This document shows positions 2,487 to 28,790 of a DNA stretch of 32,000 nucleotides, in pieces; within the stretch, counting starts at the first letter, position 1, and every line of letters starts with the position of its first letter. Origin of the DNA: an uncultured Chitinophagaceae bacterium (lineage in GTDB: Bacteria; Bacteroidota; Ignavibacteria; UBA10030; UBA8401); the NCBI GenBank assembly GCA_964642725.1, contig CAZXQG010000002.1, forward strand, positions 101,551-133,550. The letters are read 5' to 3'. The notes below the pieces were generated by a model. It worked only from the letters and a program-made list of their open reading frames with translations. It was not told the DNA's origin and searched no databases. The position numbers and the translations under genes are program-made.

Positions 2487-4427
2487 TCAATTCCATATCC
2501 GGACAGGTAAAACGACCATCGCAAGTCCATCAAGTTCCAACCGATTTTGGATAGCGTACGCCGTTTCGCTGTGAAGAATCCGCTGATACCATTTTGGCTT
2601 CTGAAAGACAAGTTTCCCGGCAAAAAAGACCGACTGCTTGAACTCGCCAGAGAGCTCTTTGCAAATCCTTTCCGCTGCCTCTACCGCTTCTGTCCCAATA
2701 GACATTCGCGATCCCGATAAAAGGCCGAGGTTGGTCGCCAACTGCACGTACCGCTGCAATTCTTTTTTGGTATTCTCTTCAAGCCGCTCGACCTCGTCTG
2801 CCCCTTTGAAATTTCCCGAATCTACGACTGCTACCGACACAAATATCATTTGATGGAAATAGCCAGGAAACTGTTTTATAATATTCAACACAGAATGAAT
2901 ACCCAGACCATTGTAACTTTCGACGAGCAGAATAGCCGTCGGTTTATTTCCGACAAGTTCTTTCTCGGGACGGATCGGAATATTTTCCGTAGGGAGGCCT
3001 TCGAGGATGTCCGACAACGAACGAAGTTTCTTATTTACAAGACGGTAGTGCCTTCGAATAATAAAACAGAGAAGTATCAATCCTGATGTGACGACAACGG
3101 TCATCCATGCGCCCTGTTGGAATTTTTCTATCACAACGATCGTTAGAATCGAAAGACAAAGCACAAGGCCCGTCATGTGGACCGGCAAAGATTTTTTCCA
3201 TTCCGGATATTTCTTGCGCTCTGTAATCCAGAATTTAACCATGCCTATTTCCGTCAACGAAAAAGTAATAAATACGTTAATGGAGTACATTGTCACCAGA
3301 GCGTCAATGTTTCCGCCGGTGTAAAAGAGCGTAGCAATGGATGCGGCACCGATAAGCATGATGCCATAATGCATGGTCAACCGGTCGGAGAGCGAGGCAA
3401 ACCGATGCGGCAGCCAACGGTCGTTTGCCATATTTGCCATCACGCGCGGACCGTCGATGAACCCCGTCTGTGCAGCGACAAACAAGAGCGCAGCTTCCGA
3501 CGCTAGAACAAGCACGACAAACCATGGTCCGAAATTGACTTTTTCAACCATGACCGCATTAAGGGTTTTTCCCGGCTGCTCGCTCACACCGAGCAATAGA
3601 TAGATGAGCAGAATTGAACCCGCTGTTATCGCGAGGGAGGTTGCCATGTACACCATCGTTCGTTTAGCGGTCGGAACCCGCGGCTCGCGCATGATTTGAA
3701 TGCCATTCGACACCGCTTCAATTCCAGTATACGTTCCGGCTCCCCGCGAATATGCACGCGCTAAGATCACGAACATTCCCCAGAAACCAAGAGTGCTGTA
3801 AGTGATATGCAGATTTTGTCCAACATGTGAGGCAATAGCCGGAGCTTCATGAAAATGCTGAATGATTGCACCGCCAAAGAGAACCAGATGGGCAATGACA
3901 AACGTAATAAAGATCGGAACCATAACGGCAATGGACTCTTTAATGCCGCGGAGGTTTAGAATAACGAGAACCACGATGGCAACGGCTTCTACCGGCACCA
4001 TCCACGTTTGCCAGGCATACGGCAGGAAACTGAAGATTTGTGCGGCACCGGATGCAATCGAGACGGTAATCGTGAGAATATAATCAACAAGCAATGCGCT
4101 TCCAGATACCACACCGAATGGTGCACCAAGAAGTTTAGTCGCAACAACATACCCGCCGCCGCCGCTTGGAAAATGCTCAATAATCCGGCTGTATGCGTAT
4201 GAAATGATAAAAACCGTTAATGCCGTTGCAAAGGCGAGGACAATAGCGAGTTCTGTATGTCCGGATAATGCCCGAAATGCTTCATCGGGGCCGTATGCTG
4301 AGGAGCTAAGTCCATCGGCTCCGAGTCCTACCCAGGCAAGGAATGCAATAAGCGAAATCTTGTGGAAGAGTTTTGGGTCGTGAATATCGCGTGGTGTTCC
4401 GATGATTACTTCTTTGATACTTTTCAA
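2487..4427 (-). CDS. APC-superfamily permease, KimA-like (possible K+/H+ symporter), with a soluble C-terminal domain
   Basis: 646-aa ORF with many hydrophobic helices. The blocks GADGLSSSAYGPDEAF and FPSGGGGYVVATKLLG resemble B. subtilis KimA (SSDALSSVAYGTE, YPQGGGAYIVSKENLG; recalled from memory). A cytoplasmic tail of roughly 180 aa follows. The start is TTG at 4427 with GAAGGA upstream and an in-frame TAA immediately before it. Confidence 0.85.
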   Translation of the reverse strand: MKSIKEVIIGTPRDIHDPKLFHKISLIAFLAWVGLGADGLSSSAYGPDEAFRALSGHTELAIVLAFATALTVFIISYAYSRIIEHFPSGGGGYVVATKLLGAPFGVVSGSALLVDYILTITVSIASGAAQIFSFLPYAWQTWMVPVEAVAIVVLVILNLRGIKESIAVMVPIFITFVIAHLVLFGGAIIQHFHEAPAIASHVGQNLHITYSTLGFWGMFVILARAYSRGAGTYTGIEAVSNGIQIMREPRVPTAKRTMVYMATSLAITAGSILLIYLLLGVSEQPGKTLNAVMVEKVNFGPWFVVLVLASEAALLFVAAQTGFIDGPRVMANMANDRWLPHRFASLSDRLTMHYGIMLIGAASIATLFYTGGNIDALVTMYSINVFITFSLTEIGMVKFWITERKKYPEWKKSLPVHMTGLVLCLSILTIVVIEKFQQGAWMTVVVTSGLILLCFIIRRHYRLVNKKLRSLSDILEGLPTENIPIRPEKELVGNKPTAILLVESYNGLGIHSVLNIIKQFPGYFHQMIFVSVAVVDSGNFKGADEVERLEENTKKELQRYVQLATNLGLLSGSRMSIGTEAVEAAERICKELSGEFKQSVFFAGKLVFQKPKWYQRILHSETAYAIQNRLELDGLAMVVLPVRIWN

Positions 4428-4942
4428 TTACGATCCTTCGCGTTGTTAAACTAACTTGTCCCATCTGTTGCAAAATGTTGACCTACTTTCTGATTACTAA
4501 CTCGTCTGCTGCATTTCGATCCCTGCATTTTCTTGCACCAATTGCTACGCAAAAGGCCCTGTTATTCCACTCATTGGAAATTCAGTGGCTTCTCATAACC
4601 CGGTCATCCCCGGTTTCCGTCAAAATGTACGTTAAAAAATATCCAAAAAAAAGCTCAATGTTGGGAGGTGTGAACATCGTTGAAAGGCAGGGAAGCGTGA
4701 GGGATCAAAAAATTGAATATTTGTGTCTAAAAATCGAACTGCTCATTTGTAAGCCAGAGACTTTTCGCTAAACGAATACTCCAGACTAACTGAAAATAAG
4801 GGTTTGCGGCAGCAATGAACGACTTGGTCCACCGAAAAGGAATCATGAGCGGGGGAAAATGCCTTTCGGACGCTTTCTTCTTCTTTGTAGGAGTTTGCGC
4901 TTGAATCTGAGAGCATAATTGCCTGAAATACCTACTTTCTTC

Positions 4943-4970
4943 TTGACAAATCTAAAAAATATACTATATT
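4943..4970 (+). promoter_or_regulatory. sigma70-like promoter candidate for the 5112-10345 operon
   Basis: TTGACA (4943-4948), a 16-nt spacer, then TATATT (4965-4970). This is the only good -35/-10 pair I see in the 684-nt gap on this strand. Confidence 0.35.
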
Positions 4971-5111
4971 TACAAGCAATTAGGCGAGAATTTGCAAGAA
5001 GTATTTAAATTGATTGCGTTAATTACCTCTAAATTGCAACACTGGTTGTTGGGATAATACTGGCGGCTGTATTCGAATTTCCTTTTCAATCACAATGCGC
5101 AGACAAACATT

Positions 5112-6242
5112 ATGCAATCTCGGTACAATTATCTTTTTGCAATTAGTTTCACCGCTATCTTAAGTATTTTACTCTCCTTCACAGCCGAAGCCCAACAACA
5201 AACCCAAAGCCAAGAGTCTCCAGCCGCTGAAGCGAAGTTTCCTTCCACGGAGAATTCTAAGCTCATTTCGATTTTTCCAAAATTCGACATTGCGCTGGAC
5301 ACCGCGTTGGCCGGAATGGCGCCGATATTGAAGGAAGTTAGTCCAAGCATCAGGACGTTGTTGTTGTATAAAACGAAAATCCGTTGGCCGTTCAAAGAAG
5401 AGTTAACATATTCCGAATTTCAATTTCTTTCGAGCTATTTCGAGGGGAAATTAAAAAATGCGTTGATTCGTGACGGGAGATTTGCCGCGGTAGCGGCGCA
5501 AGATTTGAAGACGCTGTCTTTTAAAGCGACGGACAGCACACTTCAAGTGAAGAATACGTATTCTGAGGATGAAATCCATGCCTATGCGAAAGCCCATAAT
5601 GTCGACGGCATTGTGTCCACAGACGTACTGGTTTCTGCGAATCAAATCATAATGTTTGTGAATATTAACGACCTTCATGGTGTTACCGTATGGAGCAAAG
5701 AGCTTAAGGCGGATTATCGGGTAATTCCGACAGATCCCGGTTCCGAACTTGCCGCACAGTATGCTTTGAAAAGAAAAACAGGTTTAATTGAGAACTATTT
5801 GACGGTCGGATTTAACCTTGGAACGCCGTACATTCTCGGAGTCAAGGATACTGCGGGCTCGGTCGGCTTTTATTCGATCGGCTACCGCCTGAACGAGATG
5901 GCGACAATTATGAATTTTCTAAAGTTTTACATAGATTCACGGCTTATAGGAACTTCAAAATTTGGATTGATGGGCGCCATTGTGATGCCCGGCCTTTCGT
6001 TTGAAATTATTGGCAATGACCAGATCGGCCCGGGAATTCTCATGCTCGATGTCGCCGGAGGGTTTGACATCTCATTCAAGAACAACGGCATTGCAGAATC
6101 GTATTACGGCGGACTTTCACTCCGGCTTAGCAGGAATATCGGAGTGACAGGATTTTACAATATCATTTCCATCAATAAAAGTTTCAGCAGCTTTGATATT
6201 GGCGGGCCGCTCTACGGGCTCCAAGTGAATTTTGTTCTTTAA
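5112..6242 (+). CDS. secreted protein with a probable outer-membrane beta-barrel C-terminal half (hypothetical)
   Basis: 376-aa ORF with signal peptide MQSRYNYLFAISFTAILSILLSFTAEA/QQQ. The central domain ends in DGIVSTDVLVSANQIIMFVNINDLHGVTVWSKEL, a pattern I associate with LpoB/CsgG/FlgO-type lipoprotein folds. The C-terminal half has alternating hydrophobic residues and Gly/aromatic-rich strands (GGLSLRLSRNIGVTGFYNII ... LYGLQVNFVL). Confidence 0.7.
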   Translation: MQSRYNYLFAISFTAILSILLSFTAEAQQQTQSQESPAAEAKFPSTENSKLISIFPKFDIALDTALAGMAPILKEVSPSIRTLLLYKTKIRWPFKEELTYSEFQFLSSYFEGKLKNALIRDGRFAAVAAQDLKTLSFKATDSTLQVKNTYSEDEIHAYAKAHNVDGIVSTDVLVSANQIIMFVNINDLHGVTVWSKELKADYRVIPTDPGSELAAQYALKRKTGLIENYLTVGFNLGTPYILGVKDTAGSVGFYSIGYRLNEMATIMNFLKFYIDSRLIGTSKFGLMGAIVMPGLSFEIIGNDQIGPGILMLDVAGGFDISFKNNGIAESYYGGLSLRLSRNIGVTGFYNIISINKSFSSFDIGGPLYGLQVNFVL

Positions 6243-6267
6243 CGAATACGAAGATGAGGGATTGTAT

Positions 6268-6948
6268 ATGAAAAGAGTGTTAGGTCTGGCGCTGTTTTTT
6301 TATGCATTTTGTTCCTGCATCATGGCCCAGGAGAGTTCGACGACGCGCGCTGATTCGACAGCCAAAAGCCAGATGAAATCACAAACGACATCCGCGAAGG
6401 AGAGCGCGACTCCGTCCGCTCCAGCCGCAGTGAAGCTAAACACTCCAACCCTCAATATGGATGTTTTGCTTGACCTGTACAACAAAGATATTGACTTCAC
6501 TATAGATTATTCCGGCAAAGCAGTCAAGCGAAATGAAGAGGAGCAACAACCGAATCGAAGAAAACGCGCCGGCGATGCAACGAACGATTTGCTGAAGCCC
6601 CAAGATGAAGACCTTGCATCGGATATTCAGGACATTGTCGACACATCAAAAGTAAAAAAGAAACAGCCGCGGCAAGGGACGTATACAAAGGATGATGCCG
6701 ATTATAACAAAGCGTTGTACAGCCTTCAAGAAGCGCAGACTCTTTTTTCTGAACGCCGGTACGCGCAGGCGCTTGGCGAGATTAATAAATCAGTAGATGC
6801 CGCACCGAATATGGCGCTCGCATACGCCGTCCGCGGTTCAATTTATTATATGTTGAGGCAGTTTCCCGAAGCAAAACTTAGCTGGGAAAAAGCGCTCGAA
6901 CTTGACCCGTCGATGGACAATGTGCGGGCGATACTCTATCGAATGTAA
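6268..6948 (+). CDS. secreted TPR-repeat protein
   Basis: I prefer ATG 6268 (MKRVLGLALFFYAFCSCIMAQ signal peptide, GAGGGA upstream) over the track start at 6232. A Ser/Thr/Lys-rich low-complexity linker is followed by C-terminal TPR units (YAQALGEINKSVDAAPNMALAYAVRGSIYYMLRQFPEAKLSWEKALELDP). Confidence 0.75.
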   Translation: MKRVLGLALFFYAFCSCIMAQESSTTRADSTAKSQMKSQTTSAKESATPSAPAAVKLNTPTLNMDVLLDLYNKDIDFTIDYSGKAVKRNEEEQQPNRRKRAGDATNDLLKPQDEDLASDIQDIVDTSKVKKKQPRQGTYTKDDADYNKALYSLQEAQTLFSERRYAQALGEINKSVDAAPNMALAYAVRGSIYYMLRQFPEAKLSWEKALELDPSMDNVRAILYRM

Positions 6949-6966
6949 TTAACTGAAAGGTCCAGT

Positions 6967-7815
6967 ATGAATTCGACTTTCATCGGATATGTTCTTTTTG
7001 GAATTGCCGCCTACGTTCTTCTGATTGTCGGTGCGCAATCGGAGACAGTCGATGCGCTGCAAAAAGGATATATTCCGGACTCGCTGATTCACTACGTGCA
7101 TATTCCGGGTATTATTTTTGTTTTTTTTGGCGTGAGTTCTTCCATGCTCATTAGCTATAACTTCCGGGAATTGTTCGGGGCCGCCCGTTCATTGTATTTC
7201 GTGTACATAAAGAACAAGTTGAATTTTTCAACGTACCTGGAAACAATAAAAGATATTGCTCAATATTCCAATACGCATGACATTGAGTCGCTCGAAGATT
7301 ATGCAAATCAAATACGGTACCCGTTCCTGCGCGACGGGGTATTGATGCTCGTCAATGGATATAAGAAGGAAGAAATTAAAGAAATTCTTGATGCCCGGAT
7401 AGATAATGAATCGCAGCGCGAGTTTTCTGACGTCAACGTTTTTAGAGCCGCTGCACGCTACTCACCCGGGTACGGCATGCTTGGAACCACGGTCGGATTG
7501 ATTCAAATGTTTTCGACGAAGATCGACGCCGCCGCGGGCTTCGGGCCGATTCTGCAGGCGCTGGCAGTGGCGTTTACGACGACATTATACGGCCTGTTCC
7601 TTTCCAATTTTATTTTTGCCCCGTTTGCAGACAAGATCGAGAAACGGACAGATGAAGAAGCCCTTCTCAAGAGCATGATTGTTGAAGGCTTATGTCTTAT
7701 CAAAGACAAGAGACATCCCGTTTTCATTCAAGACAAGCTTTCGTCCTATATTCCGCAGAGTCGTGCGCTCTCGGTTCCGGCGGTCTCGCAACTCTCCCCT
7801 GAAAGCGGAGGATGA
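6967..7815 (+). CDS. motA: flagellar-type stator protein MotA/PomA family
   Basis: 282 aa with a 4-TM MotA layout: two N-terminal TMs, a cytoplasmic loop of roughly 100 aa containing PFLRDGVLMLVNGYKKEEIKEILD, then SPGYGMLGTTVGLIQMF and ALAVAFTTTLYGLFLSNFIFAPFADKI (both conserved Pro positions are present). GAAAGG lies upstream of the ATG. Confidence 0.9.
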   Translation: MNSTFIGYVLFGIAAYVLLIVGAQSETVDALQKGYIPDSLIHYVHIPGIIFVFFGVSSSMLISYNFRELFGAARSLYFVYIKNKLNFSTYLETIKDIAQYSNTHDIESLEDYANQIRYPFLRDGVLMLVNGYKKEEIKEILDARIDNESQREFSDVNVFRAAARYSPGYGMLGTTVGLIQMFSTKIDAAAGFGPILQALAVAFTTTLYGLFLSNFIFAPFADKIEKRTDEEALLKSMIVEGLCLIKDKRHPVFIQDKLSSYIPQSRALSVPAVSQLSPESGG

Positions 7816-8489
7816 TGATGGTAAGAAGACGGATTAGGCGAAGAGCAGATGAGCAGCATTGGCAGGTCAGTTATATTGACTTGCTGACTGCTATGCTCGC
7901 TTCTTTTACACTGTTGCTATCGCTTTCGATTCCCGATCAGTCCAAACTCGATAGTCTTGCATCTTCAGTGACCGAAGCTGCAAAGCAGCAGGCAAACTTG
8001 GGCACCCTCTCAAAAGAACTGTTGTCAACTATTGAAAAAAATTCTTCCCTGAAAGGACAAGTTAATGTCGTCATGACGGACGCGGGCATCGAGTTGCGTT
8101 TCGGCAGCAATTTGCTCTTCCCCCCGGGGAAAGCCGCGTTGCGGCCGGAAGGTTATGACGCAATTTTCAGCATCGGCAAAATACTCGGGTATTTCGTCAA
8201 GGCGCGGAACGCGTTCATTTCCGTGGAAGGGCATACGGACGATACACCTCTTCGGAGCACCGTTGAATTTCGATCGAACTGGGAATTGTCTTCAGCGAGA
8301 GCGACAGAAGTTGTTCACTATTTGCAGGATACCGTATCGATTGAAGGTAAACGCCTCTCAAGCACGGGGTTTGCCGACGCCCGTCCGCAGAACAAAGACA
8401 AAGACCCTGTAACCGGCCAATTCACCGAAAAAGCACGCAACGACAATCGGCGTGTCGTCATCCGGATCTACTACCACAGCGACGTGTAG
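7812..8489 (+). CDS. motB: flagellar-type stator protein MotB (OmpA-like peptidoglycan-binding C-terminus)
   Basis: 225 aa. An ATGA overlap joins it to motA. The TM segment WQVSYIDLLTAMLASFTLLL carries the conserved channel Asp (codon 7878-7880). The OmpA-like block is NWELSSARATEVVHYL ... GFADARP ... NRRVVI. Confidence 0.9.
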   Translation: MMMVRRRIRRRADEQHWQVSYIDLLTAMLASFTLLLSLSIPDQSKLDSLASSVTEAAKQQANLGTLSKELLSTIEKNSSLKGQVNVVMTDAGIELRFGSNLLFPPGKAALRPEGYDAIFSIGKILGYFVKARNAFISVEGHTDDTPLRSTVEFRSNWELSSARATEVVHYLQDTVSIEGKRLSSTGFADARPQNKDKDPVTGQFTEKARNDNRRVVIRIYYHSDV

Positions 8490-8527
8490 CGCTCGAATTT
8501 GTTATCTCAAACATTCTCGGAACAAAT

Positions 8528-10345
8528 ATGAAAACCCGATTGACAAGGATTATTCTTCTGCTTGTTGTATTTTTGCAGGCGAGGCTTTTTGCCGTCGATC
8601 TCGAGCTTGAAAAAAAGAAAATGGAACGAGACTTGGAGGATCGGATTTCGATGGAAATCCGCCGCTATTTTTCAGACCTCAACTTTCTCGTTACCGCGGA
8701 AGTAACGCTTGTGGATTTGTCAGCACCGGCAAAGAAAGATAAGGGCGAAAATAGGGATTTTCTTCTTCCGGGAGTATCCGGCTTTCAGTCGCAATCTCAG
8801 AATGGAGATGAATCCGAGAGGCCGCAAATTGGCGTCGAGTCTGTCATCATTAAGATGCTCATCGATAAAAATAGAACGCCTGAAGAAAGAGACTTGCTGA
8901 CGAACATCGCTTTTTATACGGGCAAATTGAACAAGGTGCGGGGAGACAGGGTCGATTTGCAGGAGATGTCATTTCCCGCCAGCACTCTTCAGATACAGCG
9001 GGAACAACAAAAGGCCGAACAAGAAAAACAGATCCAGGAGCTTGAAAAGGAAAGGCAAGATGCTGAGTTGAGGGCTGCACAGAAATCCGGCAACGATTCG
9101 ACATCGGCAAGGCAGCAGGAATCATTTCTCAATACGACCTCATTGCTGCTGATCGCGCTTGGTCTCTTAATTGTGGTTCTCATCGTCGTACTTCTTATGA
9201 GAGGGAAGAAGCAAGAGGCTGCTGAAGGTCAGATGCCGGTGCAGCAGATGATGCAGGGAGAAGAGAATCAGATTTCTACTGGACGACAAGCGGTTGTCGA
9301 CTCGAATGCCGATTATCAAGAGGCAATCGAAGTCGATAAAGTACGGTCAAATCTTATCGTAACGTGTGCCGGCGAATCGGACCTGACATCGCACGTCATC
9401 CGGGATATGATCGCCGACGCAAATCAAAAAGACAGGCTGACCGTCATCATAGGTCAACTTGGCAAGAATGTATTGCAAGTCATGCGCGACCATTTCTCGA
9501 TCGAAGAAATGAAAGCTCTTCAGACACTTACGCTGGATAGACAAGAACGGACTCTCGCAGAAACCCGGGAAGCTTTGACTTTTTTCCAAAATCAACTTGC
9601 AGTAAAAAGGTTTTCAGAGGCCGGAAATGCAAAACAAAGTCCGTTTGCCTTTCTTGAAAAATTGTCCGAGCCCCAGCTGTATTTACTGATGAAAGACGAA
9701 CCGCCGGGAATTATCGCAATTATCCTATCCCAGCTTGCGACTCCGATTGCAAGCTCCATGCTGAAAAACCTCCCGTCAATGCAGCAGGGGGAAGTGGCGT
9801 TGGAGTTGGGAAAATTACGGCGGCTCACCTCGGATACCTACGTTTCGGTTGCAAAACAGTTGGCTGCAAAAGCTGCTACGATTCCGGTAATTAATAATGT
9901 TCAGGTTCAGGGGACCGACTTATTGTTGGATATCTTCGACAACATAGATGAAACGTCGGAATCTTCGATTATTGAATTCATCAAAGTAGTCAATCTTGAT
10001 TTGTATAGGGAAATCACGAGCCAACGGGTTTCGTTCAACGCAATCAATCACTTGGACGAAAGAGTGCTTCGTCAGATTGTCAAGGATATTTCTGGAGACG
10101 AGATTGCGATCGCTTTGAAGAATGCCCCGCCTGAAATATCCGAGCGATTCCTCTCGGTGCTTCCTTCGAAATCCCGCATCATTCTCGAAGACAGGCTCAC
10201 TTCAATGAAGGCAGTATCTCCCGATGACGAGTTGAAGGCGCGGAGAAGAATTACAAGAATGGTGAGGCAATATATCAAGGCGGGCGGCGTGCAAGCTTCA
10301 GCATTAGAAACGGGAGAAGAGACTGAAGAAGCTCAGATTCAATAA
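8528..10345 (+). CDS. membrane-anchored FliG-like protein: FliF-like (RBM + TM) N-terminal module fused to FliG N/M/C domains
   Basis: 605 aa. Residues 1-23 form a signal peptide or TM. Residues 33-148 are RBM-like (ERDLEDRISMEIRRYF..VTAEVTL; IGVESVIIKMLID..RGDRVDLQEM). Residues 155-185 form a Glu/Gln/Lys coiled coil. A TM spans residues 204-224 and is followed by RGKK. Residues 300-590 align by eye with FliG: EPPGIIAIILSQL..LKNLPSMQQGEV against the EHPQTIALILS..LP..Q.EV block, and LDERVLRQIVKDISGDEIAIALKNAPPEISERFLSVLPSKSRIILEDRL against the FliG_C torque-helix region. Confidence 0.8.
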   Translation: MKTRLTRIILLLVVFLQARLFAVDLELEKKKMERDLEDRISMEIRRYFSDLNFLVTAEVTLVDLSAPAKKDKGENRDFLLPGVSGFQSQSQNGDESERPQIGVESVIIKMLIDKNRTPEERDLLTNIAFYTGKLNKVRGDRVDLQEMSFPASTLQIQREQQKAEQEKQIQELEKERQDAELRAAQKSGNDSTSARQQESFLNTTSLLLIALGLLIVVLIVVLLMRGKKQEAAEGQMPVQQMMQGEENQISTGRQAVVDSNADYQEAIEVDKVRSNLIVTCAGESDLTSHVIRDMIADANQKDRLTVIIGQLGKNVLQVMRDHFSIEEMKALQTLTLDRQERTLAETREALTFFQNQLAVKRFSEAGNAKQSPFAFLEKLSEPQLYLLMKDEPPGIIAIILSQLATPIASSMLKNLPSMQQGEVALELGKLRRLTSDTYVSVAKQLAAKAATIPVINNVQVQGTDLLLDIFDNIDETSESSIIEFIKVVNLDLYREITSQRVSFNAINHLDERVLRQIVKDISGDEIAIALKNAPPEISERFLSVLPSKSRIILEDRLTSMKAVSPDDELKARRRITRMVRQYIKAGGVQASALETGEETEEAQIQ

Positions 10346-10367
10346 GTGCAAGACCAATCACATGTGA

Positions 10368-10402
10368 GAGGAGCGCTTTAAAGAAAGTGCTCCTCTTTTT
10401 TT
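10368..10402 (+). terminator. Rho-independent terminator of the motor operon
   Basis: GAGGAGCGC (10368-10376) pairs with GTGCTCCTC (10387-10395) as a 9-bp stem with one G-U and a 10-nt loop, followed by T7 (10396-10402). It begins 23 nt after the stop codon. Confidence 0.7.
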
Positions 10403-10443
10403 GGGAAATTATTTCACGCTCTTCGCTGTTAAGACTATAACAA

Positions 10444-11511
10444 ATGAATACCGTAGGCACACAGTTGCCGGATACACTGTTCCGGCTCCCATTGCATGAT
10501 TATTACGAGCGCTCCCATGTTCCATTGGTTGAGCGGGATGGGTGGTTATTGCCTGGCCATTTTCGCGCGATGGAAGAGGAAATGACCTTGCTTGAGCGCA
10601 ACGATGCTCTTGTTGATTTTTCCGACCACGGGCTTCTCCGTTTAGAAGGAAAAGATTCGGTCGATTTTCTCAATCGAATTTCCACTAATGATTTTAGGAA
10701 TTTTCACGCCGGAGATTCTGGTCAAACGATACTGACGACCGAAAAGGGGAGAGTCATTGATTCGATTGTGGTCGTACACCGGCAAGATCATTTATTGTTG
10801 ATCGCGAGCCGCAGAGCACAGGATAGCGTCAGACAATGGATCGAGAAATTTATTATAGCGGAGGATGTGAGAGTAATTGATCAAACGGGAAACCATATTC
10901 TTTTTGCCGATTTCCTTCCGCAGCGTATTTTGGCACCCTCCGGCGAAGAGAGCGCATGCACCGCCTTTCGGGTGAAATATTTTGATGTTGACATTGCAAT
11001 GTACTATTGTGAGTCAGGGACTGAAGTTCCGGAGATAATTCGGCCGTTGATGGTCAATCAGGTCGGAAATGATGCGTTCGAGCTTTTCTGCGTGCAGCGG
11101 GGTATTCCGCAATTCTGGAATGAAATTATGCGAGAGTTCAATCCTCTTGAATTAAACCTCTGGAATCAGATCAGTTTTAATAAAGGCTGCTATATTGGCC
11201 AAGAAGTTATAGCAAGGCTTGATACGTACAAAAGAATTCAACGAACGCTGTGCAGAATTCGCGCCGAAGGCCGCCTTCTTCCCGATAAGGAATACCGCTT
11301 ACAGGTCGAGACTAAAGAGATTGGCATGATAGTGCGCTTGGCCCGTGATAGTAAGGGCACCAATAGTTTTCTCGGGCTTGCAGTGATTAGAAAAGAATTC
11401 GCCAAACTTGGGGCAAAAATTTCCGTTGCCGATAATCCGATATCGATCGTCGTTGAGCATATCTTTGAACCGAATGGAATTCTGAATGGAAACAATAACC
11501 ACACTCGCTGA
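10444..11511 (+). CDS. ygfZ: folate-binding YgfZ/GcvT-like protein (Fe-S cluster repair / tRNA-modification associated)
   Basis: 355 aa with LLRLEGKDSVDFLNRISTNDF and the YgfZ signature NKGCYIGQEVIARL. Confidence 0.85.
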   Translation: MNTVGTQLPDTLFRLPLHDYYERSHVPLVERDGWLLPGHFRAMEEEMTLLERNDALVDFSDHGLLRLEGKDSVDFLNRISTNDFRNFHAGDSGQTILTTEKGRVIDSIVVVHRQDHLLLIASRRAQDSVRQWIEKFIIAEDVRVIDQTGNHILFADFLPQRILAPSGEESACTAFRVKYFDVDIAMYYCESGTEVPEIIRPLMVNQVGNDAFELFCVQRGIPQFWNEIMREFNPLELNLWNQISFNKGCYIGQEVIARLDTYKRIQRTLCRIRAEGRLLPDKEYRLQVETKEIGMIVRLARDSKGTNSFLGLAVIRKEFAKLGAKISVADNPISIVVEHIFEPNGILNGNNNHTR

Positions 11512-11980
11512 AGGAAAACGGAAAAAATACGAAGAATTGCTGCCTCAGCTTGCAGCGCTCGTCAGCGATGAATCCGACCTCGTGGCGAACCTGGCAAATG
11601 TCAGCGCTGCTCTGAAAGCGACGTTTCCGCTCTATTCATGGGTCGGTTTCTATCGAATGGAAAAGGGCGAATTGGTGCTTGGTCCTTTTCAAGGAAAGGT
11701 CGCCTGTGTCCGAATTAAAATAGGGAGCGGTGTGTGCGGAACCGCAGCGAAGGAAAGAAAAACGATCATCGTTCCCGATGTGAGCGGCTTTTCGGGGCAC
11801 ATTGCGTGCGACCCTGAGTCAAAATCGGAGATTGTAGTTCCGGTGATGCTTGATGGACGGTTTTTTGGCGTCATCGATGTCGATAGCAACAGGATAAATA
11901 CATTTGACAGGATAGATAAGGTCAATCTGGAGAAGGTAGCAAAGATCATCGCTCAAAAGTTCATCCAATCATTGTCATAG
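11486..11980 (+). CDS. msrC: GAF-domain free methionine-(R)-sulfoxide reductase (YebR/MsrC family)
   Basis: 164 aa. WVGFYRMEKGELVLGPFQGKVACVRIKIGSGVCGTAA ... GHIACDPESKSEIVVPV is nearly collinear with E. coli YebR. The start overlaps the end of ygfZ by 26 nt. Confidence 0.85.
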   Translation: METITTLAEGKRKKYEELLPQLAALVSDESDLVANLANVSAALKATFPLYSWVGFYRMEKGELVLGPFQGKVACVRIKIGSGVCGTAAKERKTIIVPDVSGFSGHIACDPESKSEIVVPVMLDGRFFGVIDVDSNRINTFDRIDKVNLEKVAKIIAQKFIQSLS

Positions 11981-11988
11981 AACAAATC

Positions 11989-12840
11989 GTGGCGAAAAAA
12001 CAAAAAAAGCTCCTTCATCCTTTACGAGCATACAAGAATCCTCAGTTTTTGAACAGTAAGGATGCGCGCCCGATCCGAATACTCTCAGAATTTCTGGAAC
12101 CATTGAGCAGATTCAATTACTATCGCATTAAAGACATCATTGTATTTTTTGGATCAGCGCGGATACAATCGCCGTCCTCAGCTCGAAAAAGACTTGCAGC
12201 AGTAAAGGTGAAACTAAAAGGAAGGAAGAAGATAAATCCTAACCTTACTGAAGAATACAGAAAGGCGACAATTGCTGTAGAGATGTCGGCTTACTATAAA
12301 GATGCCGAGACTCTTGCATACCTTTTAACTAAATGGTCGCAGTCGTTAAAGGAAAGGAATCGCTTTGTTGTCTGCACGGGGGGAGGGCCAGGGATCATGG
12401 AAGGGGCAAATAAAGGCGCCTTGATGGCAAAAGGAAGGTCTATAGGACTAAACATTGGTTTGCCCCTTGAACAGTATCCTAATAAGTACATTTCACCTGA
12501 GTTAAATTTTGAATTCCACTATTTCTTCATGCGTAAATACTGGTTCATGTATCTCGGAAAAGCATTGGTTGCATTCCCCGGAGGCTTCGGAACCTTGGAC
12601 GAGTTAATGGAACTGCTCACATTGCTTCAGACAAGAAAAATCAAAAAGAAAATGACGGTCATCCTCTATGGTAAAAAATTCTGGGAGCATGTCGTGAATT
12701 TTTCGCTTCTTGAAGATTATGGAATGATTAGTGGTGGTGATTTTGAATTATTTAAGTTTGCGGATACGCCACAAGAGGCATTCGAAATCCTCAGGAACGG
12801 ATTAACGAAGAACTATCTTCAACATCATGTTTGGAAATAA
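11989..12840 (+). CDS. LOG / TIGR00730-family Rossmann-fold nucleotide-binding protein
   Basis: 283 aa with a GTG start. Motifs are GGGPGIMEGANKGA and PGGFGTLDELMELLTLLQ. Confidence 0.85.
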   Translation: MAKKQKKLLHPLRAYKNPQFLNSKDARPIRILSEFLEPLSRFNYYRIKDIIVFFGSARIQSPSSARKRLAAVKVKLKGRKKINPNLTEEYRKATIAVEMSAYYKDAETLAYLLTKWSQSLKERNRFVVCTGGGPGIMEGANKGALMAKGRSIGLNIGLPLEQYPNKYISPELNFEFHYFFMRKYWFMYLGKALVAFPGGFGTLDELMELLTLLQTRKIKKKMTVILYGKKFWEHVVNFSLLEDYGMISGGDFELFKFADTPQEAFEILRNGLTKNYLQHHVWK

Positions 12841-12846
12841 GAGACT

Positions 12847-13707
12847 ATGAAACAACTTGATGAGGATTCTATAAACAGGTTAAAATCATTGATTTATCTT
12901 CTTGATGATGAAGATGATTCTATTTATTCTATTGCGAAACATCATTTGTTGCAGACTGGTGAAGAAGCCTTACCAGTACTCGAAGGATATTTTCAAACTG
13001 ACGACTCCCTTATGCAGCATCGGATAAGAGAGGTTTATGAAGCCATCTCTCAGACTACCTTCAAGGATCAATTCCGGTTATTTTGTGAAAAATACAGAGG
13101 AGATCTTGATTTGGAAGAAGGGGTTTTCCTGATCGCGAAACATGGTTTCCCGAGCGTCGAAATGCATATGTATTCGGACTTATTAAATTTCTTTGCTTCG
13201 GAATTCCAGTCCAGACTTGATCCATCAGATGCTCCCGAGGAAATTGCCGGAAAGATAGGGAATTACTTTTCAGTTGAAAAAAGGTTTTCCGGAAAAGAAG
13301 CAGATTATTACAATACGGACAACCATTATATCCATAAAGTCATCGAGACAAAAAGGGGAGTTCCGATTGCCCTCTCGGTAATTTATATGTTTGTGCTGCG
13401 TAGACTAAATTTTCCTGTTCAAGGAATCGGAATGCCTGGACATTTTATTGTTAAGTATGAGTTTGGATCGAAGCCGCTATTTGCGGATCCGTTTAACGCT
13501 GGAAGTATTCTCTCAATTGATGATTGCAGAAGATCTTTGCTTAAATTAGGATATGCCTTTAAAGATGAATATCTTGAGCCGGTCACCAATCGGCAAATTC
13601 TAGAACGAATGCTGCGTAACTTGGTGTTAGTTTTTGAAAAGCAAAACCAATCGATGAAAATGCAATCATTATTGCAGTGTATTGATATATTGAACAGAAA
13701 TGTCTAA
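12847..13707 (+). CDS. transglutaminase-like / SirB1 (YchA)-like protein
   Basis: 286 aa. RGVPIALSVIYMFVLRRLNFPVQGIGMPGHFIVKYE matches the SirB1/YchA core (recalled from memory). Confidence 0.7.
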   Translation: MKQLDEDSINRLKSLIYLLDDEDDSIYSIAKHHLLQTGEEALPVLEGYFQTDDSLMQHRIREVYEAISQTTFKDQFRLFCEKYRGDLDLEEGVFLIAKHGFPSVEMHMYSDLLNFFASEFQSRLDPSDAPEEIAGKIGNYFSVEKRFSGKEADYYNTDNHYIHKVIETKRGVPIALSVIYMFVLRRLNFPVQGIGMPGHFIVKYEFGSKPLFADPFNAGSILSIDDCRRSLLKLGYAFKDEYLEPVTNRQILERMLRNLVLVFEKQNQSMKMQSLLQCIDILNRNV

Positions 13708-13717: not shown

Positions 13718-14085
13718 GGGGGTGAATGGTCTCGACGGGGTTGAAGATGGTTAGACAGAAGCATACCGTGCTCTCCGAGTCGCACGTTAATAAAGCGGAA
13801 CCAACTTAAGTGCAGACTACAACTACGCACTCGCTGCTTAACTAAACATTAACAGCGCATCTTCATGAAGCTCTACCTGACTAGTTTCATGCAAGGTGTC
13901 GACTTCAGTCGGGCGTGCTAATATCAACGCTGGAGCGATATTAGTGAAGATCGATGCCAGATAGCTTCGGGATTGGTGAGTTCATCCAACCGGCTCGAGG
14001 CGAATGTTCACGAGATGGACTGAGTATGGAGAAGGTCTAATGGTCATCACTCCGGACCGGGGTTCGAATCCCCGCACCTCCACTA
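13718..14085 (+). ncRNA. ssrA: tmRNA (SsrA)
   Basis: The 5' end is GGGGGTGAATGGTCTCGACGGGG. The 3' end is GGGGTTCGAATCCCCG CACCTCC A CTA. The acceptor stem GGGGGTG/CACCTCC has the G3-U pair. The internal tag reading frame at 13797-13841 encodes GTNLSADYNYALAA followed by a stop codon; the resume codon is uncertain. Confidence 0.9.
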
Positions 14086-24371: not shown

Positions 24372-24627
24372 AACCTAATATATCGTACAACGAGACGAAA
24401 ATCAATCCGCCTCACTTTTGCATAGTAGATTGCGGGATTCCTTAACGAGAAGATCGCATATGACGAAATTATTTATATGGTAAATTAACAAAGTCGTCGA
24501 CATCTGCCCAATCAACGGACATCAGGTCATGACATTGAAGTATGCCTTAACTGTTAATAAGCAAATTGATTCTTACGACATTAGCGTGTATATTATACAT
24601 ATTTTCATTCACTATCTGAGAGATCCG

Positions 24628-26268
24628 ATGGATTGGATTGATTACAAACAGATCCAAAATTTTGAAGTTGGCATCACACCGTTGTTCGTAGATTATCTCA
24701 ATGATTTTGAAAAGCTGAAAGACTATTACTCTGGCGATTTTCGAGACCGTAAGAGCTGGAAGAAGCTCATAGAAAATGTAGTCGCTAAACAAAAAGACCG
24801 TTCAACGCTCGTTCGCGTTCTTACGGAACAGAACAAACAATACCACTGCGGTATACGAACCTTAGCCAATATTGATCTGCTCGGGAACGAAAATACCGTT
24901 GCTGTTGTCACCGGCCAGCAAGTGGGAATGTGTACAGGTCCGCTCTACACGATTTACAAAACAATTACCGCTATTAAACTCGCCGAACAGTTATCCGCTC
25001 AATTTCCCGAATATAACTTTGTCCCTGTCTTTTGGGTTGAAAATGAAGACCATGATTTTGATGAAATCAATAAGGTTAATGTCATCAATCCAAACGGAGA
25101 CATTACGACAATAGAATATTTAATCGGAGGGAAGCCGTTTGAAAAAAATCCCGGTCCTGTTGGCAATATTGTGATTGACAGCTTTGTCGAAAAGTTCCTT
25201 GAAGATATCCGGGCACAGCTTCAGGAAACGGAATTCAAAGGGCAATTGTTTGATTCGCTGCACGGATATTATCGGCCGGGTTCAACCTTGGGAACGGCTT
25301 TTGTCGGTTTATTGAGCGGTCTGTTCGAAGATTCGGGCCTGGTTTTCCTGGACCCCGGGAATGCGGAACTGAAACGAATTCTGAAGCCGGTTTTCCAAAA
25401 AGAAATTGCCGCAATGTCCAAGACTTCTCAAATAGTCATTGATACGAGTGCCGGGCTTGAGGAGCACTATCATGCGCAGATCAAGGCAAAGTCGATAAAC
25501 CTTTTTATGTTCCATAAAGGCGGCCGGTATCTTATTGAGCCGAGGGAAAATGATTTCAGCCTCAAGGGGACGAGGCAGTTTTTTTCAAAGGAAGAATTGA
25601 ACGCCATTATTGAACATTCTCCCGAACTGATATCTCCAAACGTTGTTTTGAGGCCGATTTGTCAAGACACTATCTTACCGACGCTTGCCTATGTTGGAGG
25701 TCCGTCGGAGATTGCCTATTTTGGACAGTTAAAATCAGTCTATGAATTCTTTGAAGTTGATATGCCTGTTGTGTATCCTCGCGCAAGCATTACGATTATG
25801 GAAGAAAAAGTAAAAAATATCCTCGAAAAATTTCAGATAGATTTTACAGAAATTTGGTCGGACATCGACCCCCTTCTGGCACGGATTGCAGAACAAGTGT
25901 CGGAAGTCAAGGTCGATGCGTTGTTTGAGCAACTCCATTGCCGTCTTCGCGAAGCTGTTGCGGAGTCGCGTTTTGGCATTCAACAAATCGACCCGACTCT
26001 TTCGGGTGCAATAGATTCAACTTTGTCGCGGATTGAGTCGCAACTGAATGTTCTAAAGGAAAAGACTCAGGCGGCTCAGCAGCGTAGGCAAGAAGTAACG
26101 ATAAAGCAGATTCAGAAGGTTGCTGCAAACATCTTCCCTAAATCGAATTTTCAGGAAAGAGAATTCAACGTAGTGTATTACATGAATAAGTATGGGCCGG
26201 ATTTCGTAAAGTGGCTGAGCGGAGAAGTTATCATCGACCGGTTCCAGCATCAACTCATCGAATTATGA
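24628..26268 (+). CDS. bshC: bacillithiol biosynthesis cysteine-adding enzyme BshC
   Basis: VVTGQQVGMCTGPLYTIYKTITAIKLA ... FWVENEDHDFDEIN matches the B. subtilis BshC (YllA) core. I prefer ATG 24628 (MDWIDYKQI, 546 aa). The 33-codon track extension is AT-rich and looks like promoter sequence. Confidence 0.85.
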   Translation: MDWIDYKQIQNFEVGITPLFVDYLNDFEKLKDYYSGDFRDRKSWKKLIENVVAKQKDRSTLVRVLTEQNKQYHCGIRTLANIDLLGNENTVAVVTGQQVGMCTGPLYTIYKTITAIKLAEQLSAQFPEYNFVPVFWVENEDHDFDEINKVNVINPNGDITTIEYLIGGKPFEKNPGPVGNIVIDSFVEKFLEDIRAQLQETEFKGQLFDSLHGYYRPGSTLGTAFVGLLSGLFEDSGLVFLDPGNAELKRILKPVFQKEIAAMSKTSQIVIDTSAGLEEHYHAQIKAKSINLFMFHKGGRYLIEPRENDFSLKGTRQFFSKEELNAIIEHSPELISPNVVLRPICQDTILPTLAYVGGPSEIAYFGQLKSVYEFFEVDMPVVYPRASITIMEEKVKNILEKFQIDFTEIWSDIDPLLARIAEQVSEVKVDALFEQLHCRLREAVAESRFGIQQIDPTLSGAIDSTLSRIESQLNVLKEKTQAAQQRRQEVTIKQIQKVAANIFPKSNFQEREFNVVYYMNKYGPDFVKWLSGEVIIDRFQHQLIEL

Positions 26269-27442: not shown

Positions 27443-27453
27443 AGCGACCTCGT

Positions 27454-28737: not shown

Positions 28738-28790
28738 ACAGAATATCCGATCCGTCGTTCACCATGGAAGAAGATGTCGAGCCGTCCGCG

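Follow-up and report, generated by a model that had tools for sequence, protein, structure and literature searches.

What is the role of a fusion between two flagellar rotor proteins that is encoded next to stator genes, in a place where flagellar genes are absent? This question is raised by an open reading frame (ORF) in a 32,000-nucleotide stretch of DNA, here called the window, from an uncultured Chitinophagaceae bacterium (contig CAZXQG010000002.1). The ORF, located at 8528..10345 on the + strand and starting with ATG in the ORF list, encodes a protein of 605 amino acids in which a FliF reduced to its third ring-building motif (RBM3) is joined to FliG. It closes a compact series of five genes on the same strand, which encode, in this order, an outer-membrane-type protein, a tetratricopeptide repeat (TPR) protein, MotA, MotB, and the FliF-FliG fusion (genes 1 to 5). 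Since this conserved five-gene operon includes MotAB and flagellar genes are absent nearby, it has the appearance of a small rotary motor, possibly one that acts outside the flagellum. On balance, we lean toward the interpretation that the fusion serves as the rotor subunit in a small machine that is driven by MotAB, is composed of flagellar motor parts, and lacks a type III export apparatus. Directly supported are the homology of these parts and their conserved co-occurrence.

A first-pass annotation of this DNA, made from the sequence alone, had interpreted the protein as a naturally occurring fusion of FliF and FliG that contains one reduced ring-building module. The proposal held up in each of the tests by which the annotation itself could have been refuted, namely, profile searches for FliG specificity, structure prediction of the ring-building fold, and searches for other genomes with the same fusion. 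All sequence strings cited in its support were present in the 605-residue protein at mutually consistent positions (FliG N domain, 304-331; M domain, 391-430; C domain, 501-586; ring-building motif [RBM], 33-147; coiled coil, 159-185). The most telling evidence, however, came from beyond the annotated ORF, namely, from the conserved operon and from unfused versions of the two genes, which the annotation had not used.

Domain organization of the fusion protein

In the cytoplasmic half, Pfam identified the FliG middle domain (FliG_M, PF14841) at residues 383-452 (9674..9883, +), with 50.2 bits, a cut-off of 25, and an E value of 3e-13, and the C-terminal torque domain (FliG_C, PF01706) at residues 489-588 (9992..10291, +), with 70.6 bits, a cut-off of 23.3, and an E value of 1.6e-19. 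FliG_M was found in all 46 family members scanned with Pfam. Because MgtE_N reached 17.1 bits, which is below its cut-off of 25.9, and the two FliG families scored above theirs, the C-terminal match is FliG specific; the region is FliG, as first annotated, and not a generic MgtE_N or ARM-type repeat. In agreement, all 13 sequence matches in the PDB were FliG or an engineered Vibrio FliF-FliG fusion, the top match being Thermotoga maritima FliG-MC (E value of 5.8e-22, residues 371-589). An AlphaFold2 model of the whole protein, with a mean predicted local distance difference test score (pLDDT) of 66.8, was matched best by structures of FliG in Foldseek: full-length FliG aligned over 305 to 331 columns, the isolated C-domain structure 1qc7 fitted with a root mean square deviation (rmsd) of 1.3 to 1.6 over 86 to 88 columns, and FliF matches ranked after FliG.

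Three FliG domains had been read by eye, and the third of them, the N domain, is supported indirectly. Pfam FliG_N (PF14842), the domain that binds the C terminus of FliF, was not significant at the N position of the fusion, and a weak match overlapped the M domain instead. An N-domain equivalent can be placed at residues ~302-370 (9431..9637, +), where the alignment with the free FliG of unfused loci (see below) begins, and FliG_N exceeded its cut-off at the corresponding site of the relatives P0053 (296-362, 31.2 bits), P0054 (32.5 bits), and P0077 (304-390, 37.6 bits). Since the NCBIfam equivalog TIGR00207 gave 89.8 bits, against a cut-off of 226.7 that was thus not reached, the FliG part is, as judged from its sequence, a departure from orthodox FliG.

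The functional residues of FliG were mapped by alignment to the T. maritima protein. The EHPQR motif (T. maritima E125-H126-P127-Q128...R160) corresponds to E391-P392-P393-G394...E426 of the fusion, with H, Q, and R all replaced; in the family, E391, G394, and E426 are invariant, and P392 is nearly so. Because EHPQR is not kept, binding of FliM by the FliG part is unlikely, and switching via CheY/FliM probably does not take place. Of the charges of the torque helix, those kept are K531 (Escherichia coli K264), K548 (R281, a conservative change), and D555 (D288), and those replaced are R556, at the position of D289, and S564, at the position of R297. All 19 fused proteins compared, which represent both clades, have K or R at the position of R281, and this is the sole classical charged position kept in the wider superfamily; the D289 equivalent is R, K, H, Y, or G across the fusions compared. 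The original reading of this helix, in which the string SKSR..LED was taken to retain R281 and the acidic pair D288/D289, therefore has to be corrected: R281 corresponds to K548, which is the K within SKSR, and not to R550, which lies two residues off, and, although D555 does align with D288, the D289 position is occupied by R556, and E554 is one position out of register.

The periplasmic half contains an RBM3-like ring-building domain at residues 24-150 (8597..8977, +), which was recognized by AlphaFold2, Foldseek, and hhalign. Two AlphaFold2 models agreed in an alpha-beta-beta-alpha-beta fold (alpha1, 24-47; beta1, 54-63; beta2, 101-112; alpha2, 118-131; beta3, 141-146), the core of which had a pLDDT of 71 to 87. 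Residues R138-G139-D140 and P150 are invariant, and F149 is nearly invariant. The top 17 PDB matches of the domain model in Foldseek were, without exception, RBM3/S-ring structures of FliF from Salmonella and Vibrio (E values of 1.5e-4 to 2.9e-3; template modeling [TM] scores of 0.41 to 0.59); weaker matches, to OsmC-like folds and to PrgK (2y9j_Y, E value of 1.7e-2), followed after FliF.

A profile of the periplasmic domain returned chance matches only when compared with PDB sequences, and the link to FliF therefore required the fold search, hhalign, and a large library of representative proteins. For the latter, a profile of residues 1-368 was compared with 1.84 billion representative proteins, and 156 matches were obtained at an E value of ≤1e-3. 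Among them were proteins, including P0087, P0122, and P0161, for which PF08345 (the C-terminal periplasmic domain of FliF; RBM3, S-ring), above its cut-off, is the only Pfam domain. The family profile matched P0087 (PF08345, 34.6 bits) in hhalign with a probability of 97.5% and an E value of 7e-12; P0087 holds a longer insertion at the position of the collar loop. It also matched the canonical FliF P0184 (PF01514, 217.9 bits; PF08345, 109.8 bits), with an E value of 3.8e-5, profile positions 98-172 being aligned with FliF residues 354-427. Subthreshold matches to PF08345 were present in the relatives P0053 (E value of 3.3e-3) and P0077 (1.7e-4) over the RBM3b part, at about profile positions 86 to 147. 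PF01514 (YscJ_FliF), which covers RBM1 and RBM2, the region homologous to SctJ, was found neither in the periplasmic part of the fusion, at an E value of ≤10, nor in the 46 family members, and the ~125 residues from the signal peptide to the stalk leave no room for these two motifs. The single ring-building fold claimed for the N-terminal region is thus corroborated by the predicted topology, the 17 FliF RBM3 matches, and the profile links to P0087 and P0184. As far as these models and profiles can tell, the periplasmic half corresponds to RBM3 of FliF, with its collar shortened; the support from sequence is indirect but coherent.

In FliF, a beta-collar of ~110 residues is inserted between RBM3a (alpha1, beta1) and RBM3b (beta, alpha, beta), and in Salmonella RBM3 by itself builds the S-ring and the collar (PMC11739650). 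At the corresponding position, between beta1 and beta2, the fusion has an insertion at residues 64-100 (8717..8827, +; pLDDT of <50), a loop of 37 residues that amounts to about one third of the FliF collar, the part that houses the proximal rod in flagella. Within it, D77 and L80-P81-G82 are invariant and V83 and G85-F86 nearly so, and the LPG motif is also present in the distant clade. The domain is followed by a long periplasmic helix, a coiled-coil-like stalk, at residues 152-185 (8981..9082, +), and the coiled coil annotated at 159-185 falls within this AlphaFold2 helix. The length of the stalk varies across the family from almost none (P0053-P0055) to ~100 heptad-like residues (P0034, P0036, and P0039). 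The height of the periplasmic domain over the membrane appears to be tuned by lineage.

Residues 1-23 (8528..8596, +; MKTRLTRIILLLVVFLQARLFA followed by VD) had been left open as either a signal peptide or a first transmembrane helix (TM1). The N terminus is indeed hydrophobic, and the family alignment favors the signal peptide: across the family, the hydrophobic stretch is short (~9 to 12 residues) and followed by A/S/G-type cleavage sites. Because of this short core and the small residues at position -1, cleavage is more likely than a retained TM1. The second helix, TM2, at residues 204-224 (9137..9199, +), was confirmed as a hydrophobic helix at 206-224, within the AlphaFold2 helix 203-230, and the RGKK said to follow it lies at 225-228.

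The fusion point could be located with the help of lineages in which the two parts are encoded separately. At loci L023, L028, L030, and L031, adjacent genes encode a FliF-like protein of 480 to 516 amino acids, with PF08345 only, and then a FliG of 310 to 312 amino acids with N, M, and C domains. In a hidden Markov model (HMM) of the family, the span matched by the unfused FliF-like proteins is 5-308, and that matched by the free FliGs is 311-575; positions 308 and 311 correspond to residues ~299 and ~302 of the fusion, which places the junction there. Residues 225-300 (9200..9427, +) are accordingly the counterpart of the cytoplasmic segment with which the unfused FliF-like proteins end. From this split of the HMM, the predicted layout of the fusion follows as a signal peptide or TM1, the RBM3-like domain, the stalk, the transmembrane helix, a FliF-like tail of 75 residues, and FliG from its N domain onward.

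Operon, partner genes, and distribution

Genes 3 and 4 encode the two subunits of a stator. Gene 3 (6967..7815, +) encodes a protein of 282 amino acids with a MotA_ExbB domain (74.6 bits), the best PDB sequence matches of which were flagellar MotA/PomA proteins (9lu9, E value of 1.5e-28; 8bri, 1.9e-27), Aquifex MotA and PomA among them; neither ExbB nor TolQ was among the PDB matches listed. Its best NCBIfam models were MotP, PomA, and MotA, all below the equivalog cut-offs (top score, 149 versus 394 for MotP), and the conserved prolines of transmembrane helices 3 and 4 of MotA are present in the alignment. By sequence, gene 3 encodes a MotA of the flagellar type with the large cytoplasmic domain. 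Gene 4 (7812..8489, +; 225 amino acids), the start of which overlaps the motA stop by 4 nucleotides, encodes a MotB-type subunit with MotB_plug (34.7 bits) and OmpA (57.2 bits) domains. The transmembrane aspartate of its SYIDLLTAM motif, which we take to be the equivalent of E. coli MotB D32, is conserved in at least 90% of 19 aligned sequences; the NCBIfam cut-offs for MotB, MotS, and MotD were not reached (top score, 125.9 versus 283 for MotD). The pair thus comprises MotA_ExbB, the flagellar-type cytoplasmic domain, the MotB plug, the transmembrane aspartate, and the OmpA-like domain, which are the domains of a stator. The equivalent of E. coli MotA E98 is an invariant E in the clade of gene 3, and the R90 equivalent is N, Q, or S. 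Because the E98/R281 pair is kept and the R90/D289 pair is lost on both sides, the contact surface of stator and rotor appears to have undergone a coordinated simplification.

The two remaining genes encode putative envelope proteins. Gene 1 (5112..6242, +) encodes a secreted protein of 376 amino acids with an N-terminal periplasmic domain and a barrel-like C-terminal region; a signal-peptide-like N terminus is visible in its translation, and distant orthologues end in ...VFRF or ...NYSF, a typical C-terminal signature of outer membrane proteins. No Pfam family was assigned to it, the only matches being weak ones to OMP_b-brl (E value of 0.031) and FlgT_M (0.036), and a profile search of the PDB gave no match. 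With its location judged from the signal peptide and the C-terminal signature, the C-terminal region of the product looks like a small outer membrane beta-barrel. Within the close family, gene 1 adjoins the module at 14 loci, and it also does so in the distant loci L021, L024, L025, L026, and L027. Gene 2 (6268..6948, +) encodes a secreted TPR protein, with TPR_2 and TPR_1 at residues 195-227 of the ORF beginning at 6232. That ORF starts mechanically with TTG at 6232 and overlaps gene 1; a signal-peptide-like sequence (MKRVLGLALFF...) begins at the ATG at 6268, which is likely to be the true start. The HMM of this TPR family found gene 2 beside the module in L021, L024, L025, L026, L027, and L029 and in the unfused locus L030.

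The operon is preceded by a 684-nucleotide intergenic region (4428-5111) that separates gene 1 from a divergent amino acid permease gene (2487-4427, -) and in which Rfam, at gathering thresholds, found nothing. It contains the best sigma-70-type match of the region from 4400 to 10700, a promoter-like site at 4943..4970 (+) with 11 of 12 positions; this is a consensus match from a scan that omits Bacteroidota-type promoters, and such sites were no commoner than expected from shuffled sequence. The strongest terminator-like site of the same region, a hairpin resembling an intrinsic terminator at 10366..10407 (+), has a 14-bp stem with 6 GC pairs, a loop of 4 nucleotides, and a TTTTTT tract, and it marks the end of the transcription unit 21 nucleotides past the stop codon of gene 5.

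To define the family, homologues of the fusion were searched in 5.8 billion proteins, which gave 57 clusters, most of them full length, with identities down to 41%. When one genome per GTDB species was scanned, the fusion was present at 20 loci, all in metagenome-assembled genomes (MAGs), and named homologues came from MAGs labeled Bacteroidota, Ignavibacteria, or Bacteroidetes. In the wide search described above, the fused architecture was present in ~98 of the top 150 representatives (50%-identity clusters), with lengths of 560 to 780 amino acids; all of the 60 of these that were listed have a transmembrane helix at ~170-360 (mostly 200-260), and the RGD and LPG motifs occur in nearly all of them. 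The databases name these homologues FliG C-terminal domain-containing protein, FliG-like protein, or hypothetical protein. No curated family covers the fusion, since NCBIfam gave a subthreshold fliG match only and Pfam was empty over the N-terminal half.

This recurrence bears on whether the ORF could be an assembly or frameshift artifact that joins two genes, a concern to which the side-by-side, unfused fliF-like and fliG genes of other lineages lend some substance. As the fused form recurs in 57 clusters and in 20 loci from independent assemblies, with a conserved junction, such an artifact is excluded for the ORF at 8528-10345.

The partner genes recur as well. Among the 20 close loci, all those with enough flanking sequence show the five genes in colinear order, and four distant loci (L021, L025, L026, and L027; ~30% identity) carry the same set in the order fusion, ~360-amino-acid protein, TPR, MotA, and MotB. 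The proteins related to this distant clade are named as Fibrobacteria or Fibrobacterota MAGs, a taxonomy that rests on few names; homologue searches with alignments of the distant members returned the same 22 proteins both times. In the unfused locus L030, the order TPR-MotA-MotB-FliF-like-FliG matches that of genes 2 to 5. In L025 and L026 (1-9800), the module is located directly downstream of rplA-rplJ-rplL-rpoB-rpoC on the same strand, which is an unusual place for a motility-type operon. Two further architectures were observed among the relatives: P0170 (532 amino acids) combines PF08345, corresponding to the RBM3b part, with a TPR repeat in a single protein, and P0110 (L022, 6666-8891) has a LysM peptidoglycan-binding domain ahead of the RBM3-like and FliG parts and is followed by MotA and MotB. 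These domain fusions hint at periplasmic partners of the putative ring.

At the level of loci, no flagellar gene was found in the 32-kb window or in the 11 distant loci annotated with Pfam. Flagellar genes were likewise absent beside the unfused fliF-like/fliG pairs, although fliH and fliI normally follow such a pair. The fusion could also be read as a functionless relic of a lost flagellum in the course of decay, and flagellar remnants have been described in the non-flagellated Chlamydiaceae (PMC4768692) and in non-flagellated Lysobacter (PMC9927559). This reading is very improbable here: the reading frames are intact in every locus, many alignment columns on both sides of the membrane helix are invariant among sequences that are 41 to 88% identical to the protein from the window, the four partner genes are conserved together across deep divergence, and the architecture is present in ~100 clusters at 50% identity.

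MotAB-like proteins also occur in the Zorya anti-phage system, in which ZorA, with a long cytoplasmic tail, and ZorB are accompanied by ZorC/D or ZorE, and PADLOC did match gene 4 to its ZorB models. These matches reflect generic MotB similarity: PADLOC found no ZorA and no match for the other three proteins, ZorC/D-like genes are absent from the operon, and its neighbors are housekeeping genes. An explanation by artifact or by a Zorya-type system is therefore extremely improbable, and even when the relic, artifact, and Zorya readings are combined, we assign them very little likelihood.

Fibrobacter succinogenes S85 is a cultured, non-flagellated bacterium and was considered as a possible bearer of the module. 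An OmpA/TPR/MotA cluster linked to cellulose adhesion in this species was considered; the cluster in the main text of PMC6851124 is ExbB/ExbD/TonB (FSU_2400-2403) and not a FliF-FliG module. Another set of genes, FSU_0283-FSU_0286, was detected in the cell envelope proteome according to the supplement of that study; as annotated there, they encode an outer membrane "conserved domain protein," an uncharacterized protein, a "putative chemotaxis MotB protein" (the expressed, MotB-like FSU_0285), and an inner membrane "fimbriae-associated domain protein," the last of which is abundant and was classed with ExbB/MotA by the authors (PMC6851124). Going by annotation, FSU_0283-FSU_0286 may be the counterpart of the FliF-FliG module, and we note this as a lead.

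A candidate rotary machine and its competitors

How might the parts work together? By analogy with Salmonella RBM3, the RBM3-like domains would assemble the subunits into a ring, and this assembly would put a ring of FliG C domains under the membrane. Stators of the MotA5B2 type, anchored to peptidoglycan through the OmpA-like domain of MotB and gated by the MotB plug, would pass ions via the conserved MotB aspartate and push the FliG torque helix, a contact that would use at least the charge pair formed by the MotA E98 equivalent and K548, the FliG R281 equivalent. The ring would turn in the inner membrane, with the transmembrane helix and the stalk of variable length carrying the motion to the periplasmic ring. 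A periplasmic partner is suggested because the length of the stalk varies and the LPGxxGF loop is invariant at the collar position. It is speculative that the periplasmic ring engages such a partner, for which the TPR protein and the predicted outer membrane protein are the obvious candidates, and equally speculative that the LPGxxGF loop touches one or both of them.

In flagella, FliF assembles into a ring of about 33 to 34 subunits, and its RBM1 and RBM2 hold the export gate. Since both are absent here, the ring could not house an export gate or export a rod, hook, and filament, and an ordinary flagellar motor is unlikely. In its fullest form, our proposal is that of a free-standing, non-flagellar rotary machine in which a FliF(RBM3)-FliG ring is spun by MotAB and drives a TPR or barrel-type partner, with no export gate, rod, hook, filament, or FliM-FliN, and which is widespread, both fused and unfused, among Bacteroidota/Ignavibacteria-like and Fibrobacterota lineages. 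We put this forward tentatively.

A number of observations weigh against the interpretation as a MotAB-driven rotor. Some Ignavibacteria and some Fibrobacterota are flagellated, and one distant locus, L024, lacks adjacent MotAB. The structural models are of moderate confidence (mean pLDDT of 67 to 68; predicted TM scores of 0.33 to 0.49), and the Foldseek matches to FliF have E values of ~1e-4, TM scores of 0.41 to 0.59, and a large rmsd, the last because the collar differs. Pfam detected nothing meaningful in the periplasmic part of the fusion (residues 22-203) or in the cytoplasmic linker. Outside the clade of the protein from the window, three of the five classical charged residues of FliG are not kept, and the MotA alignment is uncertain in the distant clade, so that a different mode of contact is possible. 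Oligomerization and rotation are predictions made from genes and structural models, and the output may be surface movement, work on the envelope or outer membrane, or secretion.

The flagellated members of these phyla lead to the question of whether the operon could supply a genuine flagellum after all, as a lineage-specific second FliF/FliG-MotAB set that operates inside the normal basal body or replaces a portion of it and whose TPR and outer membrane proteins serve as stator scaffolds in the manner of PflA/PflB or MotX/MotY. Both MotA and MotB belong to the flagellar type, stators in Campylobacterota and Vibrio are scaffolded by TPR proteins and outer-membrane-linked discs, and spirochaetes have FliG paralogues. 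We nevertheless judge this to be unlikely: PF01514, and with it RBM1 and RBM2, is missing, leaving no hold for an export gate; the FliM-binding motif is lost; flagellar genes are not adjacent in the window or in the 11 annotated distant loci, unfused pairs included; and the module keeps a constant partner set of its own.

Another alternative is a non-rotary, ion-driven transducer in which MotAB induces a conformational change or limited motion of the fusion, as a monomer or small oligomer, and passes the movement to the TPR and outer membrane partners, in the style of ExbBD-TonB or TolQR-TolA. Most of the classical torque-helix charges are indeed unconserved across the superfamily, and the outline of the protein, in which one transmembrane helix is combined with a long periplasmic helix that varies in length, a globular domain at the distal end, and outer membrane partners, resembles that of TonB or TolA. 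However, this distal domain belongs to the ring-building type, and the structures closest to it are those of ring-forming FliF RBM3; all FliG domains, counting the N-domain equivalent, are kept; and MotA has the large torque-generating domain instead of being of the compact ExbB/TolQ type, in the classification of PMC12505986. A transducer of this kind is, in our estimate, rather improbable, and the rotor of a small MotAB-driven machine is the interpretation that we retain.

Related systems, surrounding genes, and significance

Compared with the flagellar motor's core, the module shares an RBM3-type domain, the transmembrane helix, the FliF-like tail, the M and C domains of FliG with an N-domain equivalent, a flagellar-type MotA, and a MotB with plug, aspartate, and OmpA-like domain; the membrane topology, which agrees with that of FliF followed by FliG, and the R281/E98 pair are also kept. 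It differs in that FliF and FliG form one polypeptide in the fusion, RBM1 and RBM2 are absent, the collar has ~37 instead of ~110 residues, the RBM and the transmembrane helix are separated by a long helical stalk, and EHPQR and the D289/R90 pair are lost; in addition, it occurs without nearby flagellar genes and is constantly accompanied by a TPR protein and a predicted outer membrane protein.

Engineered fusions in Salmonella and Vibrio likewise join FliF covalently to FliG in the same order, and the Vibrio construct (PDB 8z4d_1) was among both the sequence and the fold matches of the 605-residue protein. These constructs, unlike the natural fusion, contain full-length FliF with three RBMs and the full collar and act inside a complete flagellum; the engineered Vibrio fusion is reported to form MS-rings (PMC11481574; PDB 8z4d/8z4g).

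The fusion had initially been presented as a departure from canonical flagella. It is a natural fusion, as claimed, but not an unprecedented one, because a natural FliF-FliG fusion has already been described in Chlamydiaceae (Bergeron 2016, PeerJ, PMC4768692). The chlamydial protein, of ~330 amino acids, contains an RBM2-like and one unassigned RBM, has no SpoIIIAG-like (RBM3) domain and only an M-like region of FliG, and was proposed to work with the injectisome protein SctQ; no MotAB partnership was described for it (PMC4768692). Both proteins are natural combinations of a shortened FliF, with fewer RBMs, and a FliG-like part, in lineages without a normal set of flagellar genes. Going by the published description, the 605-residue fusion is set apart by its RBM3 in place of RBM2 (no PF01514), its FliG M and C domains and N equivalent, and its being encoded with MotAB.

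SctJ/PrgK of the injectisome and SpoIIIAG of the sporulation channel have the alpha-beta-beta-alpha-beta ring-building fold in common with the fusion, and the RBM of SpoIIIAG also bears an insertion (PMC4768692). Their rings, however, are static and have neither FliG nor MotAB, and the best matches of the fusion were to FliF RBM3 and not to SctJ. Similarities of another kind exist with inner membrane motors. GldLM, ExbBD-TonB, TolQR-TolA, and AglRQS are ion-driven 5:2 motors of the MotAB superfamily that pass work to outer membrane partners, and GldLM, which serves type IX secretion and gliding, occurs in Bacteroidota. Their output, unlike that proposed here, is the B-type subunit or a partner of the TonB/TolA type; to our knowledge, none of them uses a FliG/FliF-type rotor, and their A subunits are without the flagellar torque-generating domain. 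The TPR proteins PflA/PflB, the FlgP discs, and MotX/MotY resemble the module in that TPR or outer-membrane-associated proteins are encoded or assembled with stators, but these scaffolds decorate complete flagella, and the likeness noted here is one of role.

A full-text literature search retrieved no description of the module, and the chlamydial fusion was the sole natural precedent that it yielded; as its coverage was incomplete, this is no proof that the module is undescribed. A recent phylogeny of MotAB makes no mention of FliF-FliG-type partners (PMC12505986). Whereas the idea of a FliF-FliG fusion is not unprecedented, its architecture, operon, and distribution thus appear to be undescribed within the literature covered.

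Some other features of the window are noted here. Downstream of the operon, at 10444-13707, are genes for GCV_T/YgfZ-like, GAF, LOG/lysine-decarboxylase-like, and transglutaminase-like proteins. Their order is kept in the closer relatives (L001-L009 and L018) and not in the distant ones, and for this reason they are probably neighbors by descent and not parts of the system. A transfer-messenger RNA gene at 13718-14085 (+; Rfam RF00023, 153 bits; ARAGORN tag ADYNYALAA) lies between the transglutaminase-like gene and dapF. A gene for BshC, of bacillithiol biosynthesis, is located at 24529-26268 (+; Pfam E value of 3.4e-116) and, along with the names of the homologous MAGs, fits a host of the Bacteroidota/Chlorobi/Ignavibacteria type. 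The region from 27210 to 30656, which is the most GC-rich part (~50%), has long ORFs on the + strand (122 to 201 amino acids) opposite genes for a MalK-like ABC ATPase, an EPSP-synthase-family protein, and PNPase; these + strand ORFs most likely represent non-coding shadows.

The flagellar motor is usually deemed inseparable from its type III secretion core, with FliF taken to house the export gate and FliG to belong to the switch with FliM and FliN. The module described here keeps only the parts that receive torque (FliG), form the ring (RBM3 and the transmembrane helix), and generate torque (MotAB), along with envelope proteins that are not flagellar. The gene set is small, and its fused and unfused forms constitute natural controls. 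If our interpretation is correct, a rotor-stator unit could exist usefully without secretion, rod, or filament, which would bear on the evolution of flagellar rotation: the module could be either a streamlined descendant of the flagellar motor in a new use or a surviving relative of the rotor-stator unit as it was prior to its union with a secretion system. It would also provide a minimal rotor, possibly consisting of a single polypeptide, for structural and synthetic work, and it would point to an ion-powered envelope function in abundant, mostly uncultured environmental bacteria.

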